A stretch of DNA of 64,000 nt from IMG/VR virus record IMGVR_UViG_3300025917_000016, positions 2,556 through 66,555 of that record; one strand, given 5' to 3'. The position numbers were made by a program, and so were the translations under genes. The stretch is from a virus. The notes beneath the pieces are model-generated. The model had not been told where the DNA came from. It made no database searches and saw only the letters and a program-made list of their open reading frames with translations. This document shows, piece by piece, positions 9,827-35,305 of the stretch. Numbering within the stretch: the first letter of the stretch is position 1; each line of letters starts with the position of its first letter.

Positions 9827-10020
9827 CACTGCCCCAGCACTTCGAGAGCATCGTGCAGCTTGTCGTCGATGGTCTCGTGGCGGTGCCACATGCTATCGCC
9901 GATCTTGTACGCCTGCTGCATCTGGGAATTGAGCAGCTGCGCTTCGATGATCTTCTCCACAGCATCATCGATCCTGCTCATCGCCGTCGCAGGCGGCGCA
10001 GTCAGTGCGGTATCGCTCAT
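9826..10020 (-). CDS. Hypothetical protein
   Basis: Coupled ORF with RBS. Confidence 0.5.
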   Translation of the reverse strand: MSDTALTAPPATAMSRIDDAVEKIIEAQLLNSQMQQAYKIGDSMWHRHETIDDKLHDALEVLGQ

Positions 10021-10691
10021 AGTCCTATCCTTTCTTCCAGGTCCTTGTCGCGCCTGAGCATCGGCGCCCATGCGATGTAGTCGCCCAAGTCATTCCACAC
10101 GCCGCGCACGGCGACGCCGCCGCGCGTGAGCAGCTGCACGGCAACGCCGTCCGGTGCGCGTTCGCCGATGTGCGGGTACTGCCAGCGCGCTACGCTGCCC
10201 ACGGCCACCTGGTCGCCGACCTTGATGACATCGGTCAGGACCGGCGGCGCGACGAAGCCATCGTCGTAGTCGTAGTTCTTCGGGTCGCCCGCGTGCTCGG
10301 TCGGCTGGCCGTTGAAAGCGTAGTCAATGAAGCGCGGATCACCGCCTTCCTTGGCCTGCAGCGGGATGAACATCAGGTTGGCCACCTCATACACGGCATC
10401 GAGCGGCGCGTCCTTGTCCACGAGGAACAGCAGGTCGGCGTTGACGATCACCATGCGCTGCTCGTTCTCGAGTACGGGCTGCGGCGCCAGCACCTGTGCC
10501 GGCTCGTACTGCTGGATCACCCAGCCGTCTGTCTCCAGCGCCGACCAGCGGCGGTTCTTGCGGCCGATCAGACTCGCGCGGCACGAGTAGGGCGACGACG
10601 CCATCGTCTCGTACTCGGGGATGCCGTCCGGGCCGATGGCGGCCCACACACCCGGCGCATGCCAGTCGAAGTCCTTGTCCTTCGAGTTCAT
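10017..10691 (-). CDS. Hypothetical multi-domain protein
   Basis: ATGA overlaps at both ends; C-terminal VQLLTRGGVAVRGVW...AWAPM module. Confidence 0.6.
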   Translation of the reverse strand: MNSKDKDFDWHAPGVWAAIGPDGIPEYETMASSPYSCRASLIGRKNRRWSALETDGWVIQQYEPAQVLAPQPVLENEQRMVIVNADLLFLVDKDAPLDAVYEVANLMFIPLQAKEGGDPRFIDYAFNGQPTEHAGDPKNYDYDDGFVAPPVLTDVIKVGDQVAVGSVARWQYPHIGERAPDGVAVQLLTRGGVAVRGVWNDLGDYIAWAPMLRRDKDLEERIGL

Positions 10692-21743: not shown

Positions 21744-23120
21744 TTACAACCCCGCGAACAAGTCCAGCAGGTTGCCCATGCGTGCATCCTTGCCCATCAG
21801 GTTCTTGTAGACCGCCTGCTCGACCGCCATGTCCGACAGGACGATGATCGTCTCGGTCTTCTGCTTCTGGCCGTTGCGGAATGCGCGCTTGTTCCCCTGC
21901 ACGAACCACTCCAGATTGTCCGTCGGCGACGGCCAGATCGTCGTCGACGCACGCGTCAGGGTCAAGCCATGCGCGGCGCTGGCCGGGTGCGCGAACAGCA
22001 CCTGATAGAAGCCGGCCTGGTAGTCCTTGACCATCTCGGCACGCTGCTTCACCGGCGTCTTGCCGTCGATGACGCAGTACTTGATGCCGCGTTTTTCGGC
22101 CTCGGCCACCATGAAGTCGCGCTGGTGCTGCCACAGGAAGAACACGATCGAGTGCTTGCGGTCCTCGACCAAATCCATCACCAGCTCGTACCGGCCGCTG
22201 TCGACAAGGTGATACTGCTCGCTGTGCTCGTACACGGCGCCGGATGCGATCTGTAGCAGCTTCGTGCGCACGGCCGCCGCGTTGATGGCGTTGATCACCT
22301 TGCCCCGCACGGCGGCGAGCTGGGTCATCGCCATCTCCTTGTACGCGCGCAGCTGCTTGGCCGGCATCTTGTATGGCATCGTGTACTGGAAGTTCTCCGG
22401 GATGTCGATGCAGTCCTGGAAGCGGTGCCGGATCGTCGAATCGGCCAGCAGCGCGAACACGGCTTCCTCAGCACCTTCCTTGTCCTCCCAGCGCACCATC
22501 TCGCGGCGCGGGCCGACCTGCACCGGCTGACACACGGCCTGGCGAAATGCGAAGAAGCTCTGGCCCAGGCGCTTGCCGTCGTCGATGAAGAACATCTGGT
22601 TCCAGATGTCCGTGATCGAGCGCGGGTTCGGCGTGCCGGACATGGCGATGCGGTCGCGGAAGTGTGCCTTGATCTTGTTGAGCGCACGGCTGCGCTGCGT
22701 GGTCGGGTTGCGAAATGCCGTTGACTCGTCCACCACGACGCGCACGAAGCGCTTGAAAAACGCCTTCGGCTTCTTGGCTAGCCAGTTCACCGCATCGTGG
22801 TTCGTCACATATACATCGGCCGGTGCGGCGAACGCCTCCTCGCGGTTCTCGGCCCAGGCCACGGAGACCTTCAGATGCGGCGCGAACTTCGTGATGTCCT
22901 CGGCCCACGCCGATTCGAGCAGGGACTTCGGCGCCAGTACGAGCAGGGCCTCGCCCTTCTTGCGCGCCTTGTCGAACGCGATAATCTCGACGAAGGTCTT
23001 ACCGGTGCCCGGATCGCTCATGTCGAACAGGCGCACAGGACTGGCCTTCGCGAAGACCTTCAGCGATTCGGCCTGGTGCTTCATGGCCTTGATGACCGGG
23101 GGTTTAGGCACTGCTGCCAT
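21744..23120 (-). CDS. SNF2-family (SF2) helicase
   Basis: DPGTGKT, VVDES, SGTP, AAHGLTL, QGNKRAFRNGQ. Confidence 0.9.
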   Translation of the reverse strand: MAAVPKPPVIKAMKHQAESLKVFAKASPVRLFDMSDPGTGKTFVEIIAFDKARKKGEALLVLAPKSLLESAWAEDITKFAPHLKVSVAWAENREEAFAAPADVYVTNHDAVNWLAKKPKAFFKRFVRVVVDESTAFRNPTTQRSRALNKIKAHFRDRIAMSGTPNPRSITDIWNQMFFIDDGKRLGQSFFAFRQAVCQPVQVGPRREMVRWEDKEGAEEAVFALLADSTIRHRFQDCIDIPENFQYTMPYKMPAKQLRAYKEMAMTQLAAVRGKVINAINAAAVRTKLLQIASGAVYEHSEQYHLVDSGRYELVMDLVEDRKHSIVFFLWQHQRDFMVAEAEKRGIKYCVIDGKTPVKQRAEMVKDYQAGFYQVLFAHPASAAHGLTLTRASTTIWPSPTDNLEWFVQGNKRAFRNGQKQKTETIIVLSDMAVEQAVYKNLMGKDARMGNLLDLFAGL

Positions 23121-23478
23121 TGATTTCCTCCTGCGTGAATTGGTACTTGTCGCAGTATTGTTCGGCGACCTTTAGGTGATGCAGGCCATGTACCTCGTCG
23201 CCGGCCAATCTCTCCTGCACGCCGCGCGACGCATGGTAGGTATAGCGCTCGATAGCGACCTTGCGGTCGACCATGCGCTGGTACTGTGTCGGATGGTTGA
23301 GCGGGTTCAGCAGCTCGATGTCGATCATGTCGAGCGCGAATTTCGGCGGGTGCAACATCGACTTCGGGATGGACTGGTAGTTCGGCGCAGAACTCGACAT
23401 CGTCCGCGTGACCGAACCGCCGTAGATCAAGTCCAAACGTTCTTTCTTCGGTAGTGCTTCCCAGTCATCGAGATTCAC
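23104..23478 (-). CDS. Small protein carrying a PolA TGRLSS-PNLQNIP-like motif
   Basis: GTGA overlap with the nuclease stop; LIYGGSVTRTMSSSAPNYQSIPK. Confidence 0.55.
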   Translation of the reverse strand: MNLDDWEALPKKERLDLIYGGSVTRTMSSSAPNYQSIPKSMLHPPKFALDMIDIELLNPLNHPTQYQRMVDRKVAIERYTYHASRGVQERLAGDEVHGLHHLKVAEQYCDKYQFTQEEINGSSA

Positions 23479-25540: not shown

Positions 25541-25840
25541 CTACGCGTGCATTGTATCGCGAATCGCTTCTGCGGGCACGCTCGGGATACCGGCGCTGAT
25601 CGCACCGATCACATGGCCGATATCGGACAGCGCAGTATTCAGGCGCTGGACGGCGAGCAGGACCGGGCTGATGCCGCGCGCCCTCGCACTCAGGATCACA
25701 TCGTCGTCCAGTTCGTAGTACAGGAACTGGAACAGCGTGTCGCCGCACTCGCGCAGGTCCTCACCGCGCTTCAGGTGTGCGAACTCACCGCCTCGATATG
25801 TGTCCATCAGGATACGTTGCAAAGTGTTCGGTTTCATCAT
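25541..25840 (-). CDS. Hypothetical protein
   Basis: Coupled to the VWA gene stop (YRGGEF...GDTLFQFLYYEL). Confidence 0.6.
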   Translation of the reverse strand: MMKPNTLQRILMDTYRGGEFAHLKRGEDLRECGDTLFQFLYYELDDDVILSARARGISPVLLAVQRLNTALSDIGHVIGAISAGIPSVPAEAIRDTMHA

Positions 25841-26973
25841 TCTGTGTCCAGGGTAATGTGAAGGGTGTCGCCGAACGGTGCGATGAGATCCGGAGTGATC
25901 GAGACCCATAACACGGGGAAACTCGGCGGTGTTTTTGGAAACGGTCCATACAGATCGGTAAGATACACCATCACACAGGGTTGTGTTGCCATTTCTTCAG
26001 CATATCGCATGACTGGACGGAAATCCGTGCCGCCGTTGGCAAAACGCGTCATCTCGAAATGATCGTCCGGCCCGAACTCCTCGACCTTGGCCACGTCCAC
26101 GGCGAAGTGCGCCAGCACGATCTTCTCGGGCCGCAGGTCTTCCTGGATCGCCGCAATTTCAGCGGCGAACGCCTCGACGACTTTCTGGTCCACGGACCCA
26201 GACTCGTCCGATGCGATGACGATCGGGCCCATTTCTTCGCTGTACAAGCCCGGCAGGTAGTGACCGGCCGCCTGCATCTTGCGGTTCAGGCGCTGCCACG
26301 AATAATCGTTCTTCGCGGCGTTCATCACGAACAGGCGCAGCTGCTCGCGCCAGTCGACCTTGTTGCGGCTGGCCTTCTCGATGAACTGCTCCATCGACTC
26401 GTGCAGCTTGCCGGCGGCTGCGGCGGCGGCCGCGGCTTGTTGCGCGGCGACGTGCCAGTCGGCGGCCTGGGCCTGCTGCATGGCCGGGTCAGTCGGGCCG
26501 GGCAACACCTGATCGAGCGGGCCGGGCTTCTGGCCACTCGGCGCGCCACTGCCACCCGGCGGCGGATCGGGGATCATCGAATAGATCTGCTCGGCCGTTT
26601 TGCCGCGGTACTGCACGTCGTGCAGCCAGCCCTCGCCCAGCTTGAGGCCGGACTGCACCAGCATGTCGTTCACGACATAGTCGCATGCATAGTTCCACTT
26701 TTGCGGGTTCAGGTTGATCCCGCGCCCAGACGCGCCGCAGTGCTCCAGCACGCAGTGCATGACCTCGTGCGCCACGGCCGACGTAGCAACGTCGTTCGGC
26801 AGCGTGTTGAGGAAGTCCGGGTTATAGCGCATCGTCTTCCCATCCACGTTCAGCGTCGGGATGCTCGGATCCTGCACCAGTTCCAGGCGCATCGCCAGCG
26901 TGCCAAAGAACGGCTGGTCGATGAGCAGCGTTGTGCGCGCCTTGGTGATCTTGTCGTGTGCCTGCTTGTTCAT
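25837..26973 (-). CDS. DUF2201-type HExxH metallopeptidase plus VWA domain protein
   Basis: AHEVMHC...H, WNYACDYVVN; MIDAS DESGS, GGTDF, YLTDLYG. Confidence 0.88.
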   Translation of the reverse strand: MNKQAHDKITKARTTLLIDQPFFGTLAMRLELVQDPSIPTLNVDGKTMRYNPDFLNTLPNDVATSAVAHEVMHCVLEHCGASGRGINLNPQKWNYACDYVVNDMLVQSGLKLGEGWLHDVQYRGKTAEQIYSMIPDPPPGGSGAPSGQKPGPLDQVLPGPTDPAMQQAQAADWHVAAQQAAAAAAAAGKLHESMEQFIEKASRNKVDWREQLRLFVMNAAKNDYSWQRLNRKMQAAGHYLPGLYSEEMGPIVIASDESGSVDQKVVEAFAAEIAAIQEDLRPEKIVLAHFAVDVAKVEEFGPDDHFEMTRFANGGTDFRPVMRYAEEMATQPCVMVYLTDLYGPFPKTPPSFPVLWVSITPDLIAPFGDTLHITLDTE

Positions 26974-27338
26974 TCCCTGCTCCTTGAAAGTCGTATCTCG
27001 ACCGCGCGCATGACCACGTCCACGCCGATCGTCTGTTTGCCGTCCTGGGCCTGCTTTTCGACGACGTTGATCCACCACAATCGCGTGCGTTTATCCCAGC
27101 GCTGCCATAGGTTATAGTTTGAGTTGAAGCGATGGTATTCCTGGGCCAGCTCGTCGAGTGCACTGGCGTACATCCAGAGCTTCGTTTCTTCGTCATCGGT
27201 GAACAGCTCCTGATCTTCAATCCCGTCGGGATCGTACACGCAGCGACCGTCGACATAGACCTTATCGCCGTTATAGGTGATGTAGCCGCCTTTATGTTGC
27301 GCTGCCTTGATGATAAGTCGTCGTTCCCAGTCGCTCAT
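26970..27338 (-). CDS. Hypothetical protein, C-terminal AVEIRLSRSRE
   Basis: ATGA-coupled on both sides. Confidence 0.6.
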   Translation of the reverse strand: MSDWERRLIIKAAQHKGGYITYNGDKVYVDGRCVYDPDGIEDQELFTDDEETKLWMYASALDELAQEYHRFNSNYNLWQRWDKRTRLWWINVVEKQAQDGKQTIGVDVVMRAVEIRLSRSRE

Positions 27339-29349: not shown

Positions 29350-29858
29350 GGGTTCACCCTCGGCGCCAGGCGGTACTCCATATACTTCGTCAGGATCGCT
29401 TCCGCATCTGCGTATCCACTCCACTGCCGGCGTATATAGTTTTCGAGATCGATGATTGCCGACTCGAACTGATAGAGAATGCAGCTCATGGCGTCGTAGT
29501 ACGACGTGGTGCCCGGCCAGGACTTGCCGGTGTCGATTACCGCGCGGATCAGGCACAGCTGCTCGAATGACTCGCGTACGTGCGGGCGTTCGAGCTGAGG
29601 GAAGACGAGCGAGCCCTCGTTTGCCCACCTGAACAGCCCACGGTCGCGCAGCTCCTGGCCCATCGACGCGAAGGCCCAGTTGCCGGGCTTGGTCCGGTCC
29701 GCGCTGGACAATTCCAACCTGATCGACGCGTCGACCTTCCTCAGCCTGTTCTGACGAATCATCAGGTTGATCGAATTGACCAGATGCGGACTGTCCATCC
29801 ACTTGACCACCAGCACCCGGCCGTCCTGCGTGGTCCAGGTCGCATCGGGCTGCGTCAC
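29346..29858 (-). CDS. Hypothetical protein, C-terminal YMEYRLAPRVNP
   Basis: N-terminal WTTQDG...MDSPHLVN module; AGGAGG RBS. Confidence 0.6.
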   Translation of the reverse strand: MTQPDATWTTQDGRVLVVKWMDSPHLVNSINLMIRQNRLRKVDASIRLELSSADRTKPGNWAFASMGQELRDRGLFRWANEGSLVFPQLERPHVRESFEQLCLIRAVIDTGKSWPGTTSYYDAMSCILYQFESAIIDLENYIRRQWSGYADAEAILTKYMEYRLAPRVNP

Positions 29859-30418
29859 TTTGAACCTCCTTTCATATGCTCGAACAGGTAGCGGAACGAA
29901 TCCATATGCTCGAACAGGTAGCGGAACGAATCCATATGCGTCTCGATGTCGATCATCGTCGGCTGCGTTTCCGGCTCTTTACGATCCATCGCCATCTCGA
30001 ACACGACCGCCACGGCTTCCGCGGCCTTCTCGCCAGCGCGGCCGTTCTTCTTGGCCAGCTCCGTGAGCTTCTTGATGATCTCGGCCCGCTCCTTCGGCTT
30101 GCGCTCCTCGAAATACGAGGCGTTCACGTTGTACACGCGGCGCAGCGCCACCGCCCAGCGCCACTCCTCGGTGCTGAGCTTGTGCTTGGCGGTGGCAATG
30201 TCGAACTGGTCGAACGCGGTCTTGAAATCGACCAGGACCTCGTCGTGCACGATGCCATGAATGCGGGCGCCTTTGAGGAACGCGTCCGGCCCGACGCTGT
30301 AGCGCCCGGCATGCGCCGCGGCCTTCGCCTGCGTCCGTTGCTGCGCCATCGTTTCAAGATAGCGCTTCTCCAGCGCGGTGAAGTCCAGAGCGCCGAAGGG
30401 ATTCTTCGGCTTTTCCAT
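29855..30418 (-). CDS. 187-aa protein made of condensed PolA and nuclease active-site motifs
   Basis: DFTALEKR, RTQAKAAAHAGRYSVG, IVHDEVLVDFKT, MIDIET. Confidence 0.6.
   Translation of the reverse strand: MEKPKNPFGALDFTALEKRYLETMAQQRTQAKAAAHAGRYSVGPDAFLKGARIHGIVHDEVLVDFKTAFDQFDIATAKHKLSTEEWRWAVALRRVYNVNASYFEERKPKERAEIIKKLTELAKKNGRAGEKAAEAVAVVFEMAMDRKEPETQPTMIDIETHMDSFRYLFEHMDSFRYLFEHMKGGSK
29873..29939. repeat. Perfect 30-bp tandem duplication (2.2 copies), in frame
   Basis: CATATGCTCGAACAGGTAGCGGAACGAATC x2 plus CATATGC; encodes HMDSFRYLFE twice. Confidence 0.95.
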
Positions 30419-32851: not shown

Positions 32852-33280
32852 TCAGGCTCTGTTTTCTTCGGCGGCGCCGATGGATTCGGGATTTTCAGGC
32901 GAATGCTCTCGTCCATGTTCCTTCTTTCTTTCGTTGTGATAGTGACGGTCGTACAACCGCTTGCGCACCGTAACCAGCTCGTCGATACTCTGCTGCGTCC
33001 GGCCGCGTTCTTCGTCGAGTTCTTTCATCCGCTGCTGGTACGCGCGCGTTATGTCGCGCTGCTCCTGCTCCAGCTGCATCTGTCGCGCGCGGTGGTATTC
33101 CAGGTGCAGCTGGACGACACGAAGTTCGTCGTCCACCTGATCGGGCGTGAGCCTGCCCTGTGCCAGTTCACGTTTCAAGTGGCGCATTGTAATGGCCGGA
33201 GTGCGTGGGCTGGCCAGACGAAGTTCCATGAACACCGGAATCTCGTATCCCATGTCGGTATGCTTGGGCATAGACTTCAT
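32852..33280 (-). CDS. Coiled-coil hypothetical protein (start uncertain)
   Basis: Heptad-rich ORF overlapping the upstream gene. Confidence 0.5.
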   Translation of the reverse strand: MKSMPKHTDMGYEIPVFMELRLASPRTPAITMRHLKRELAQGRLTPDQVDDELRVVQLHLEYHRARQMQLEQEQRDITRAYQQRMKELDEERGRTQQSIDELVTVRKRLYDRHYHNERKKEHGREHSPENPESIGAAEENRA

Positions 33281-33656
33281 TCAGAAGTTGGTGCAATGCC
33301 ACGGCCGGCTTCTCGCCGCCGCGGACGGACTTGCGGGATAGATGCGTCATCACGAAAAAACGTGTGACGAACCATTTGATCTGGCGCTCGTTCATCATGC
33401 CTGGCCCGGCCACCAGCTTCGTCTCGGCCTCGGCATAGATCATGTTGCGGGCGATGTGCTGCCCGACCATCTCAATAAGCTTGTCGAACGCTGTCACTCT
33501 GTTCCGGTGCTGGCTCTCATGCTCGTGGCACTCGGCCTGGATACCAGTCGGTACGTGCAAGATACGCACGCCGCGATACGACGACCACATCCAGCGGCTG
33601 GTCTGACCTGGCGCCCGGTACGTACTGATGACGAGGTCCTGCGGCTTCAAATCCAT
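33168..33656 (-). CDS. Class I peptide release factor domain-3 homologue lacking GGQ
   Basis: DLVISTYRAPG...GVRILHVPTGIQAECHEHESQHRNRVTAFDKL; AAGGAG RBS. Confidence 0.75.
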   Translation of the reverse strand: MDLKPQDLVISTYRAPGQTSRWMWSSYRGVRILHVPTGIQAECHEHESQHRNRVTAFDKLIEMVGQHIARNMIYAEAETKLVAGPGMMNERQIKWFVTRFFVMTHLSRKSVRGGEKPAVALHQLLNEVYAQAYRHGIRDSGVHGTSSGQPTHSGHYNAPLET

Positions 33657-33728: not shown

Positions 33729-35030
33729 TCATCGCCAGAGAGCTTTCAGACGATCCGCCATCAGTCGCTGGCCTGCCACATTCGCATGGACATGGTCGCC
33801 GCTGTCGTAGATGGCCTTGAGTGCGCCCGTACCGCCCGAGTAGTCAGTGATGAGTGTATCGACATCGATCAGGTTGACCAGCCCTGCAGTAGCCCACGCC
33901 TTGATCTGGGCAATGCATTTCAGGCGGCCAGCTTCCTGCGTCGGCGAGTAGCCGTTGACACCATAGCCGGTCGACATCCACACCTGCACGCCCGCGGTGC
34001 GCAGCTTCTGCAGGTAGGCCGTGTCCCGCGCAATCAGCGTGTCGGCGCCGTTGATATTGCCGCCGAAGCCGTTCTGGCTCCATCCCTGGAAGTAGATGTC
34101 CGTCGGTGCGAAGCTGGCGGTCATCATATAGTCCAGCAGCAGCAAGTACTCGGTATGGCTGTGTCCGGAACCGGCCAGGTTCGTCACGGAGATCGGCGCA
34201 GTCTGCGTCGACAGCTCGCGCAGCGCGACAGCTACCCAGCTGGTGACGTAGTCGTTGTACGCGCTCTCGGTCGTGCTGTCGCCGACCAGGACGACCGAGC
34301 GCGCCGGCACTGCATATTGGAACTCCAGCCAGGCATACATCTGGAAGCCACCCGTGGTCGAGACTGATGCCGGCAAGTTGGTCAAGGTCGTCACGCCATC
34401 GTTGGCAGTACTGTTAGTGATGAACTCCCGATACGCAGCCGCGCCGCGGTTGGCGTAATAGGCCGTCAGGTTGCTGCCAAACTGGGTGAACACGCCGCTG
34501 GCGTCGGTCTGTGCCAGCCGGAGCAACGCTGCGGGACGTCCGCCGACGACGTCGGCGCGTGGCAGCGACACGCATGGCATCCAGTCAGAGACCATGTAGG
34601 ACGCGCTGTTGCTGGCGGCAGGGGCCAGGACGCCGGTCTTGGTCGCCGCGCCGCCGTCCCACGTTACCGCGCGCCAGCCGTAATCCGTCGTCGCCAGGGC
34701 GTTGTAAAACGTGCCGTTCGCCTTGGGCACGCAGGCGTTGTTGACCGTGTCGTTCGCCATCGTCTCGGTCGGCGCCACCACGGCCTTGAATACCGGTACC
34801 GTGCCGCTGTTGTTCTTGACACCGACCCAGACCCGCACGGCCGTGAACGGCGCCTCCGCCTCGAACTTGTAGCTGTTCGTCTTAACGCCCGAGGCGCCCG
34901 TCACGAACTGCGAGTTGCCGAACGAGCGCTGGCCGCCGGATAGGTTGGCGACGCGACTCGTGTAACCGGTGAGAGCGGTCTGGGATGCGCCTGCCAGCTC
35001 GCCTGGCGCTTTCAGTCCTGCGGCCTTCAT
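33729..35030 (-). CDS. SGNH/GDSL hydrolase with N-terminal beta-rich domain (virion esterase-like)
   Basis: Block I VLVGDSTT, block II NLAGSG, block III SQN, block V DHVH; ATGA overlap with the upstream gene. Confidence 0.8.
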   Translation of the reverse strand: MKAAGLKAPGELAGASQTALTGYTSRVANLSGGQRSFGNSQFVTGASGVKTNSYKFEAEAPFTAVRVWVGVKNNSGTVPVFKAVVAPTETMANDTVNNACVPKANGTFYNALATTDYGWRAVTWDGGAATKTGVLAPAASNSASYMVSDWMPCVSLPRADVVGGRPAALLRLAQTDASGVFTQFGSNLTAYYANRGAAAYREFITNSTANDGVTTLTNLPASVSTTGGFQMYAWLEFQYAVPARSVVLVGDSTTESAYNDYVTSWVAVALRELSTQTAPISVTNLAGSGHSHTEYLLLLDYMMTASFAPTDIYFQGWSQNGFGGNINGADTLIARDTAYLQKLRTAGVQVWMSTGYGVNGYSPTQEAGRLKCIAQIKAWATAGLVNLIDVDTLITDYSGGTGALKAIYDSGDHVHANVAGQRLMADRLKALWR

Positions 35031-35305
35031 TTCGCAGTCCCCATGATGGCCGACACGGTACCGGACGCGATACTCGTTACATTGGCACGAACGTACTGCC
35101 ACGGGTCGACGTCGACGTAGCCGCCGGACGCGGTGATGCCGGTCTGGATCTTGATGGCGTTGACGCCGTCGTTCGACACCTCGATATCGACGGTCGCCGT
35201 ACCGGTAATGACGACCTGGATGGTGCGGGACTGGGCCGGGTTGATGTTGACCCAGTTGCCGGGGCCGGTGACGCCCTGGTTCTGCATAAGCGTAGTGGTT
35301 GCCAT
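35027..35305 (-). CDS. Small beta-sandwich virion-like protein
   Basis: TATVDIEVSNDG...WQYVRANVT; AGGAGG RBS. Confidence 0.65.
   Translation of the reverse strand: MATTTLMQNQGVTGPGNWVNINPAQSRTIQVVITGTATVDIEVSNDGVNAIKIQTGITASGGYVDVDPWQYVRANVTSIASGTVSAIMGTAK

Follow-up and report, generated by a model that had tools for sequence, protein, structure and literature searches.

What is a phage protein of 187 residues doing with look-alikes of the catalytic motifs of a DNA polymerase packed into some 55 residues of its N-terminal part? The question is raised by an open reading frame (ORF) at positions 29855-30418, minus strand, of a 64,000-nucleotide stretch of viral DNA (hereafter, the window), which comprises bases 2556-66555 of the 66,555-base IMG/VR virus record IMGVR_UViG_3300025917_000016. 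The record, estimated to be ~99% complete, is that of an uncultured N4-like phage. The ORF is real. Its product, P0001 (187 residues and a stop codon), begins MEKPKNPF at an ATG at position 30418, 2 bases past the stop of an AAA+ ATPase gene; homologues start at the same place, which supports this assignment, and the P0001 stop at 29855 overlaps the start of the next gene at 29858. We conclude that P0001 belongs to a rare phage protein family that combines a new helical core with fast-evolving arms, and that the arms bear non-catalytic look-alikes of polymerase motifs and, in some members, of nuclease motifs, which are maintained by selection; this conclusion is well supported by the data presented below.

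P0001 was compared with a Pol I reference composed of 21 bacterial Pol I sequences, all from one phylum, from which a hidden Markov model (HMM) and a consensus were built. Single-motif mini-HMMs used with hmmsearch returned fragmentary, low scores, and ungapped matrices cut from the Pol I columns were used instead, with the order of motifs A, B and C (A<B<C) required; a consensus segment for the proofreading exonuclease motif ExoI was defined in the same way. A first-pass annotation of the window, made from the letters alone, had described the protein as a concatemer of polymerase and nuclease motifs, and the strings it quoted are all present in P0001: ALDFTALEKRYL (residues 10-21), RTQAKAAAHAGRYSVG (28-43), RIHGIVHDEVLVDFKT (52-67), and MIDIET (155-160). 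The A<B<C matrix scan landed on exactly the three polymerase-like segments singled out there. The motif A look-alike (30350..30391, minus strand; residues 10-23) reads ALDFTALEKRYLET, the Pol I consensus being SADYSQIELRILAH. The motif B, or O-helix, look-alike (30290..30337, minus strand; residues 28-43) corresponds to RRRAKAVNFGIIYGMG in the consensus, and the look-alike of the motif C hairpin (30227..30265, minus strand; residues 52-64) reads RIHGIVHDEVLVD, versus RLLLQVHDELVLE in Pol I. Between them, the three segments supply D12, E17, R28, K32, Y40, D58, and E59, i.e., the catalytic carboxylates and the arginine, lysine, and tyrosine of the O-helix, with polymerase-like spacing within each motif. 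As had been claimed, the segments follow one another in polymerase order but are compressed: they start at residues 10, 28, and 52 of P0001 versus positions 410, 461, and 582 of the Pol I HMM, and are thus 18 and 24 residues apart, compared to 51 and 121.

The P0001 score for the ordered motifs, 56.5, was reached by none of 5000 shuffles of its sequence (23.2 +/- 6.4, maximum 52.3). Out of 613 six-frame, stop-to-stop ORFs of at least 60 residues in the window, P0001 ranked first, the runner-up scoring 42.7. Taken singly, the motifs of P0001 were modest, their scores being reached by 79/2000 (A), 90/2000 (B), and 12/2000 (C) shuffles.

The look-alikes are not copies of the family-A polymerase (PolA) encoded by the phage itself (17760-19892, minus strand), which reads VVDSGQIEARVNAW, RFVGKIAVLGLGYQMG, and TTHDEVV at the corresponding places. 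A BLASTP comparison of P0001 with this protein gave nothing better than E 0.36, and when a profile of the family arms was aligned to it with hhalign, only the HDE stretch was aligned (P 0.11). Given this lack of similarity and the different wording of the phage's own motifs, P0001 is not a recent deletion derivative of polA. The statement that gene decay does not account for such a protein also stands, with homologues at 21-60% identity, ratios of nonsynonymous to synonymous substitution rates (dN/dS) of 0.2-0.3, and no similarity to the phage's own polA. The two nuclease echoes pointed out earlier were less convincing. LVDFKT, which had been read as an echo of IIDYKT in the phage PD-(D/E)xK nuclease, is identical to it at 3 of 6 positions, and 6876 out of 20000 shuffles (34%) equaled this match. 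MIDIET (29939..29956, minus strand; residues 155-160) is identical at 5 of 6 positions to MIDLET of the phage exonuclease, a likeness found in just 15 out of 20000 shuffles, but the hexamer was picked after the fact. As an ExoI motif, it was not significant, since 194/2000 and 83/1000 shuffles did as well against the Pol I ExoI matrix, and neither an ExoII nor an ExoIII motif, expected of a DnaQ-like 3'-5' exonuclease, was seen in P0001. In distant relatives, the alignment columns occupied by MIDIET read IDYKTG or MDFKTG. Overall, the earlier description holds for the polymerase look-alikes of P0001, while its nuclease part fails for this protein and applies to the family.

The family was collected with HMMER by searching 1.84 billion cluster representatives exhaustively, which gave 18 sequences at E <= 1e-3 (8 at <= 1e-10); word-index searches contributed two further members, P0004 and P0024. 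The members are 154-254 residues long. Pfam and PHROG contain no family for P0001, no Pfam family is recorded for any member, and a search of 50,697 phage records produced no family match and no cultured phage with a member. The family is rare and phage-only. The related loci are one viral contig and three metagenome contigs, one of the latter being the viral contig itself, and gene context was available for three relatives. A candidate on a Phycisphaeraceae chromosome (locus L008, ~10001-10162) was set aside as spurious: it is a large unrelated ORF with a short EEWRWAVA stretch, STPEEWRWAVAQYRG, whose likeness to the most conserved words of the family is probably fortuitous.

In the family alignment (alignment A2; the family alignments are shallow, with 19-20 rows), a single conserved block corresponds to P0001 residues 80-148, and the arms flanking it are full of insertions and deletions. 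W88, A122, and A132 are invariant in this alignment, and E85, A91, V95, A133, and P149 are nearly so. The expectation that motif residues would be kept while spacers vary was borne out only in part: 14 of 19 members have the motif A-like pattern D[YFL]xxhEx[RK] and 11 of 19 have [HM]DE, but the motif B-like K...YG was found in just 8 of 19. D12, E17, K18, and R19 are invariant in alignment A1, and D12 is near-invariant in alignment A4. The motif B segment is retained as RAQIKAAAHAGRYSVG in the member encoded by locus L007, and is variable or absent in close relatives.

A profile made from 12 N-terminal arms (alignment A4) was searched against all PDB sequences. Out of 16 matches at E <= 10, 14 were family-A polymerases, of which seven were Pol I/Klenow sequences at E 3.6-5.6 and seven were Pol theta, with a best E of 0.0018; a dihydrofolate reductase and PdxJ made up the rest. 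The alignments cover motif A (aaDYSqLElRvlAhLS) and the run-up to motif C (lrGaff.lqlHDELiYe). The best match alone is below E 0.01, and the argument is therefore one of enrichment. Searches with individual members gave a similar picture. Pfam DNA_pol_A was matched at E <= 10 by 2 of 19 members, with a best E of 0.0036. Against the Pol I HMM, P0019 gave a P of 6.5e-7 (one-sequence E-value), its residues 6-32 being collinear, without gaps, with svllsADYsQiELRilAhlseDpeLle. P0017 (P 2.8e-5) aligned without gaps over residues 199-228, and its residues 32-61 fell on motif C, while the match of P0024 (P 6.2e-5) covered motifs C, B, and TGR..QxIP. For each of these three proteins, 0/300 shuffles scored as high; most other members were individually weak. 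The best-scoring stretch lay within the T, A, B, or C segments of the HMM, which make up 23% of it, in 14 of the 19 members reported, compared to 11.5% of shuffles.

The matrices were also run over 22 sequences (20 members and those on loci L004 and L007). At p <= 0.05, where chance is expected to yield about one per motif, motif A was detected in 13 sequences, B in 10, C in 9, ExoI in 7, TGR..LQNIP in 5, and KTGRIH in 3. The arrangement of segments varies. ExoI-like segments are N-terminal in P0011, P0012, P0017, P0018, P0020, and P0024, the core of P0013 is followed by a segment resembling motif B, and motif C is ahead of motif A in P0017 and P0024, i.e., the order is permuted. The likeness to PolA is thus statistically real at the family level. 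Because the ungapped collinear stretches of 27-30 residues in P0019 and P0017 also span non-catalytic positions, the arm segments appear to descend from polymerase genes rather than to result from convergence, and in wording they are nearer to cellular Pol I or Pol theta than to the polymerase of the phage itself, which suggests a source of the former kind.

Nuclease likeness was assessed with a hallmark of PD-(D/E)xK enzymes, hhD[YF]K[TS]G followed by QxxxY within 4-30 residues, which was read off fetched PF12705 (PDDEXK_1/Cas4-like) nucleases and the phage's own enzyme, the patterns being written after both data sets had been seen. The phage nuclease (23475-24332) reads IIDYKTGRK...EQVQLY, and 13 ORFs from the fetched PF12705 loci share the hallmark. 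A composite pattern, h[DE][YFW..]K[TS]..Q...Y, is shared by 5 of 20 family members, which carry hhD[YF]KTG and then QxxxY as the phage enzyme does, compared to a mean of 0.01 in shuffled sets; in the window, it was found in 1 of 613 ORFs, the true nuclease. The module follows the core in P0006, P0010, and P0011 and precedes it in P0016 and P0018 (example, IDYKTGRTTSNDQIDAY), and judging from this placement may have moved as a unit. Unlike the nucleases, family members have one motif pair only. PF12705 was not among the 12 families recovered by a Pfam scan of 19 members, and a phmmer comparison of the phage nuclease with bacterial PF12705 proteins gave no match. The composite pattern is absent from P0001, where the corresponding place, MIDIET...MDSFRYLF, is degenerate.

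The structure of P0001 was predicted with AlphaFold2 (AF2) from alignment A2. The core (29975..30181, minus strand; residues 80-148) was modeled as three helices (83-96, 108-122, and 127-144) with predicted local distance difference test (pLDDT) values of 89-98. A long helix, residues 14-39 (pLDDT 84-88), spans the motif A helix and the motif B look-alike, while residues 41-67, including HDE, have pLDDT below 50; no strands or beta-sheet were predicted from this shallow alignment. The P0024 model is alike, with everything outside the core and one helix below pLDDT 50. Foldseek searches with the P0001 model, in PDB as in BFVD, returned nothing at E <= 0.001. The best hit among 48,161 chains searched with VIA-align had Z 4.5 and belonged to an uninformative class, and only unnamed viral clusters, at 0.90, were found in the ESM Atlas. 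By these comparisons, the core is without a known fold. It is also unrelated to Pol I, and the idea that it is itself a polymerase relic was rejected. With hhalign, core residues 83-130 were placed on residues 335-383 of the thumb of the phage PolA with just 2.7% probability (P 0.017), and when a core profile was compared with the 21 Pol I sequences, 43% of 2100 shuffles reached the real median; the resemblance of core helices to the Pol I O-helix or helix Q was by eye only.

P0001 is probably non-catalytic. It cannot readily be viewed as a polymerase because of its small size, the lack of a predicted palm fold, and the poor conservation of the O-helix lysine. Permuted module order, the absence of motif B from P0003-P0005, and the existence of a member (on L004) without PolA-like segments are further signs against a polymerase. 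The likeness to family-A polymerases (PF00476; Pol I/Klenow, Pol theta) is one of segments. Arm segments resemble motif A (strand, aspartate, helix), the O-helix, and the motif C hairpin, and relatives add ExoI-like and TGR..LQNIP-like segments; in contrast, the polymerase domain has ~400 residues, with thumb, palm, and fingers, and P0001 has neither a Pfam match nor a predicted palm or fingers.

The rates of change of the family were estimated from DNA where available. In the comparison of P0001 with its closest relative with DNA (L007), a single pair with small counts, the N-terminal arm had a dN/dS of 0.25 and the motif segments one of 0.21, while arm spacers and core both came to 0.33. The gene is kept by purifying selection. 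At the same time, family proteins are less similar to each other than are the products of the adjacent AAA+ genes: identities were 70 versus 90% for L007, 33 versus 63% for L006, and 30 versus 55% for L004. Divergence is quicker in the family than in the AAA+ gene beside it.

The gene directly upstream of P0001 (30421..31608, minus strand) codes for a MoxR-like AAA+ ATPase (phrog_1297, E 1e-82), and an ATPase homologue is directly upstream of the family member in the window and in all three related loci (3/3). Relatives of the ATPase, at ~29-31% identity, occur in 848 phage records, mostly of N4-like podoviruses with some large phages. Farther downstream, a fusion of a zincin-like metallopeptidase (HEVMH) and a VWA-like domain is encoded (25837..27078, minus strand; DUF2201_N, E 1.9e-42; DUF2201, E 1.6e-22), in which DESGS forms the metal ion-dependent adhesion site (MIDAS); its start is likely the ATG at 26973. 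The VWA-peptidase and MoxR genes bracket ~3.3 kb of small genes and DUF3150. In L004, a 66.7-kb phage record, the gene order is ATPase, family member, neighbor, DUF3150, VWA-peptidase, and the VWA-peptidase thus shares a block with the family gene both there and in the window. The VWA-domain MIDAS site is described as binding an extended or unstructured peptide in the part of Kaur et al. 2020 (PMC7159879) available to us, and phage pairs of MoxR and metallopeptidase-vWA proteins were proposed, in the available text of Iyer et al. 2021 (PMC7824862), to act as chaperone and co-chaperone in virion assembly.

A complex of the ATPase, the VWA-peptidase, and P0001 was predicted with alignment A2 and three controls. 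The complex scored 0.52, versus 0.13 for the best control, in which the VWA-peptidase had been replaced; both controls replacing the partner scored 0.00. Predicted runs shared at least 65% of contacts, and partner pLDDT was at least 54. In calibration, 58 of 80 solved complexes attained the score mark, as did 2 of 110 mismatched pairs. The prediction makes the VWA-peptidase a possible partner of P0001, a lead and not a finding.

Based on these data, we consider that P0001 may be a motif-displaying pseudo-enzyme which is read by a peptide-binding partner, the VWA-peptidase being the candidate, and we put the probability of this statement as a whole at roughly 40%. According to this proposal, P0001 would be a scaffold, with a helical core and flexible arms that bear the compressed polymerase active-site look-alikes within 55 residues. 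The acidic, active-site-like peptides on the arms would be displayed to the partner, which could be the phage's own zincin-peptidase/VWA protein with its intact MIDAS, acting with the upstream MoxR ATPase. P0001 might then serve as a client, a pseudo-substrate, or an adaptor of the MoxR/VWA-peptidase machine.

Several observations weigh against this proposal. P0001 alone was not significant when compared with the full-length gapped Pol I HMM, 26 out of 300 shuffles scoring as high, and it did not match Pfam DNA_pol_A (PF00476) at E <= 1. Motif B is missing from P0003-P0005, the three closest full-length relatives, and the member encoded by L004 (G026, a related complete phage) has no PolA-like segment at p <= 0.05; the motifs must therefore be dispensable for whatever job the core performs. 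The suggestion that motif segments are under tighter constraint than spacers was not upheld, since in the one DNA pair available they were not clearly more constrained (0.21 versus 0.33, with small counts). Members are mutually related, so that the per-member counts given above are not independent events, and the low pLDDT of the arms may only reflect the shallow alignments. Of the 80 solved complexes, only 7 passed the mark with a score of 0.60 or less, a range that also included both mismatched pairs that passed. By calibration, the support is weak: a result of this kind is wrong more often than it is right, except where the interaction was already probable. The job was, moreover, unlike the calibration in having three chains, two chains were without alignment, and no interface was reported. 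Finally, the MoxR/VWA-peptidase pair is widespread and the family very rare, and the family therefore cannot be a general partner of the machine.

The alternative that survives best, which we nevertheless regard as somewhat unlikely, is that the arms are pieces of polymerase and nuclease genes captured by recombination and now used as linkers or helices, with function residing in the core and the C-terminal helix and the likeness to the motifs being of no consequence. The core is indeed the only part conserved across all members. Recognizable PolA-like segments have been lost not only from the L004 member at p <= 0.05 but also, at p <= 0.01, from P0014, P0015, and P0020; motif B is gone from P0003-P0005, and the catalytic O-helix lysine is often missing. 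However, PolA-like segments remain recognizable at 21-30% identity, and the residues kept are those that are invariant in real polymerases. Purifying selection on the N-terminal arm is as strong as on the core. Modules of the same kind are found at different positions in different members, which is hard to obtain by passive decay.

A different role for the display of motifs, and the one favored by the first-pass annotation, is that of an immune decoy. With the core as a scaffold, the arms would imitate invariant active-site epitopes of replication enzymes, so that a host pattern-recognition receptor, or another defense protein by which phage polymerases or nucleases are sensed, would be kept occupied. 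Sensors of this kind exist: Avs19, described in a 2026 preprint (PMC12803255; available to us in part), is a STAND sensor activated by phage family-A polymerases. An arms race would fit the divergence of the family, which outpaces that of its neighbors, and the gain, loss, and reordering of modules. The gene sits in a block of small accessory genes, and the wording of the look-alikes is nearer to cellular-type Pol I and Pol theta than to the phage's own polymerase. On the other hand, dN/dS of 0.2-0.3 reveals no positive selection. Avs19 requires the core polymerase domain and not the catalytic aspartate, and it ignores E. coli Pol I, according to the part of the preprint available (PMC12803255). 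Such requirements point to recognition of a fold, and arms predicted to be mostly unstructured would make a poor fold decoy. We consider a decoy unlikely.

A second small ORF in the window also bears on the decoy. This ORF (23104..23478, minus strand; 124 residues) is unrelated to P0001, is a separate gene, and shares with it the theme only. It carries LIYGGSVTRTMSSSAPNYQSIP and ALDMIDIELL and no other ORF of the window scores as high with the Pol I TGR..LQNIP matrix (42.7; next, 25.5). Its homologues, P0026 and P0027, retain YGG[ST]xTGRxxGGPAVINQISK and ALDxIDIELL, and all three proteins therefore bear PolA-like segments. The ORF has no Pfam or PHROG family, and no copy was detected in the related phage G026. 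A broader and rather doubtful proposition would place the P0001 family and this ORF in one class of phage proteins for active-site display. Such small scaffolds would present, on their arms, look-alikes of catalytic motifs of family-A polymerases, proofreading exonucleases, and PD-(D/E)xK nucleases, would act as decoys with several epitopes, or as pseudo-substrates, for a host defense factor or for a protease or chaperone that reads those motifs, and would have their arms reshuffled in an arms race.

It is also conceivable, though quite improbable, that P0001 regulates or inhibits a family-A polymerase or a nuclease, be it host Pol I, an enzyme of a rival phage, or the phage's own. Such a fragment would interfere with its target through competition for DNA ends, for dNTP or Mg, or for folding contacts. 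In real enzymes, the imitated segments all touch the primer end, the dNTP, or the metal. The half of the genome in which the gene is found is that of replication and accessory genes, and the divergent motif wording of the phage's own polymerase could spare it. What argues against inhibition is that nothing in the predicted folds would keep the segments in active-site geometry, and that members differ in which modules they have and in what order.

That P0001 is a small helical phage protein of ordinary kind, with a likeness due to chance, is already disfavored and, in our view, highly improbable. Each motif is short and by itself only modestly significant, and the full-HMM score of P0001 is equaled by 26/300 shuffles, but no shuffle out of 5000 matched the ordered motifs, P0001 is first among 613 ORFs, 14 of 16 PDB matches to the arm profile are family-A polymerases, and P0019 matches the Pol I HMM with a P of 6.5e-7. 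A true miniature nucleotidyltransferase, or a module binding dNTP or metal, has next to no likelihood: the seven catalytic-type residues of P0001 are all in place with polymerase-like spacing per motif, but the motif B lysine or arginine is missing in many members, the HDE region is modeled at pLDDT below 50 with no beta-sheet, relatives permute the motifs, and 187 residues are few for a polymerase domain.

We thus return to the pseudo-enzyme read by a peptide-binding partner and to its place among known systems. Phages make mimic or pseudo-substrate proteins, such as the DNA-mimic anti-restriction proteins, in which a conserved feature is imitated to engage a partner. To our knowledge, phage mimics described so far imitate DNA or a folded surface. 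In a full-text literature search (PMC10201439 included, supplementary lists outside it), no small phage protein composed of polymerase-motif look-alikes was found in the portions of the texts available, nor was there any account of a protein in which linear look-alikes of the active-site motifs of enzymes are joined one after another. MoxR/VWA pairs are known in a phage form whose VWA protein has a metallopeptidase at its N-terminus (PMC7824862), and peptide-processing systems coupled to vWA-MoxR have been described as well (PMC7159879). The parallel with these systems is that the family gene lies between the two genes, among small fast-evolving genes, that the MIDAS is intact, and that the weak predicted interaction depends on the VWA-peptidase. 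The difference is that the published accounts, in the parts available, describe no such family member and that virion assembly is the role proposed for the phage pair.

If the arms do imitate active-site peptides, the family would be a case of linear motif mimicry of replication enzymes, either the host's or the phage's own, which we have not found described for phages. If the proposal is true, P0001 would also be the first candidate client of the pair formed by MoxR ATPase and peptidase-VWA protein, which is widespread in phages but unexplained. The 187-residue P0001 and its family offer a compact object with which to ask whether bacterial sensors, proteases, and chaperones read catalytic motifs. 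Even the conservative reading, in which fragments of polymerase genes are kept under selection on a new scaffold, is unusual and demands an explanation in terms of function.

The C-terminal part of P0001 contains a perfect 30-bp tandem duplication of 2.2 copies (29873..29939, minus strand), which doubles HMDSFRYLFE of the C-terminal helix. The family version of the duplicated element is Q-x-D-A-Y-R-Y-L-F, a conserved C-terminal helix. P0002, a near-identical database protein of 177 residues, has a single copy of the 30-bp unit, and the duplication must therefore be recent and polymorphic.

The gene downstream of P0001 (29346..29858, minus strand) codes for a protein of 170 residues that belongs to no family; it is syntenic in L004 (10516-10977) and L006 (~2257-2664). 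The protein reads TWTTQDGRVL..WMDS... and ends with ...YMEYRLAPRVNP. Further genes nearby code for a helicase, a primase, ThyX, and DUF3150, in addition to the family-A polymerase, the exonuclease, and the PD-(D/E)xK nuclease. On the other side of P0001, a 457-residue ORF (33729-35102, minus strand) has no PHROG family, and its C-terminal half is weakly GDSL-lipase-like (E ~1.5e-4, just under Pfam cut-offs). A small ORF (33168-33656, minus strand) matches Pfam RF-1, a peptide chain release factor family, with an E of 6.9e-10 over residues 2-68 only.

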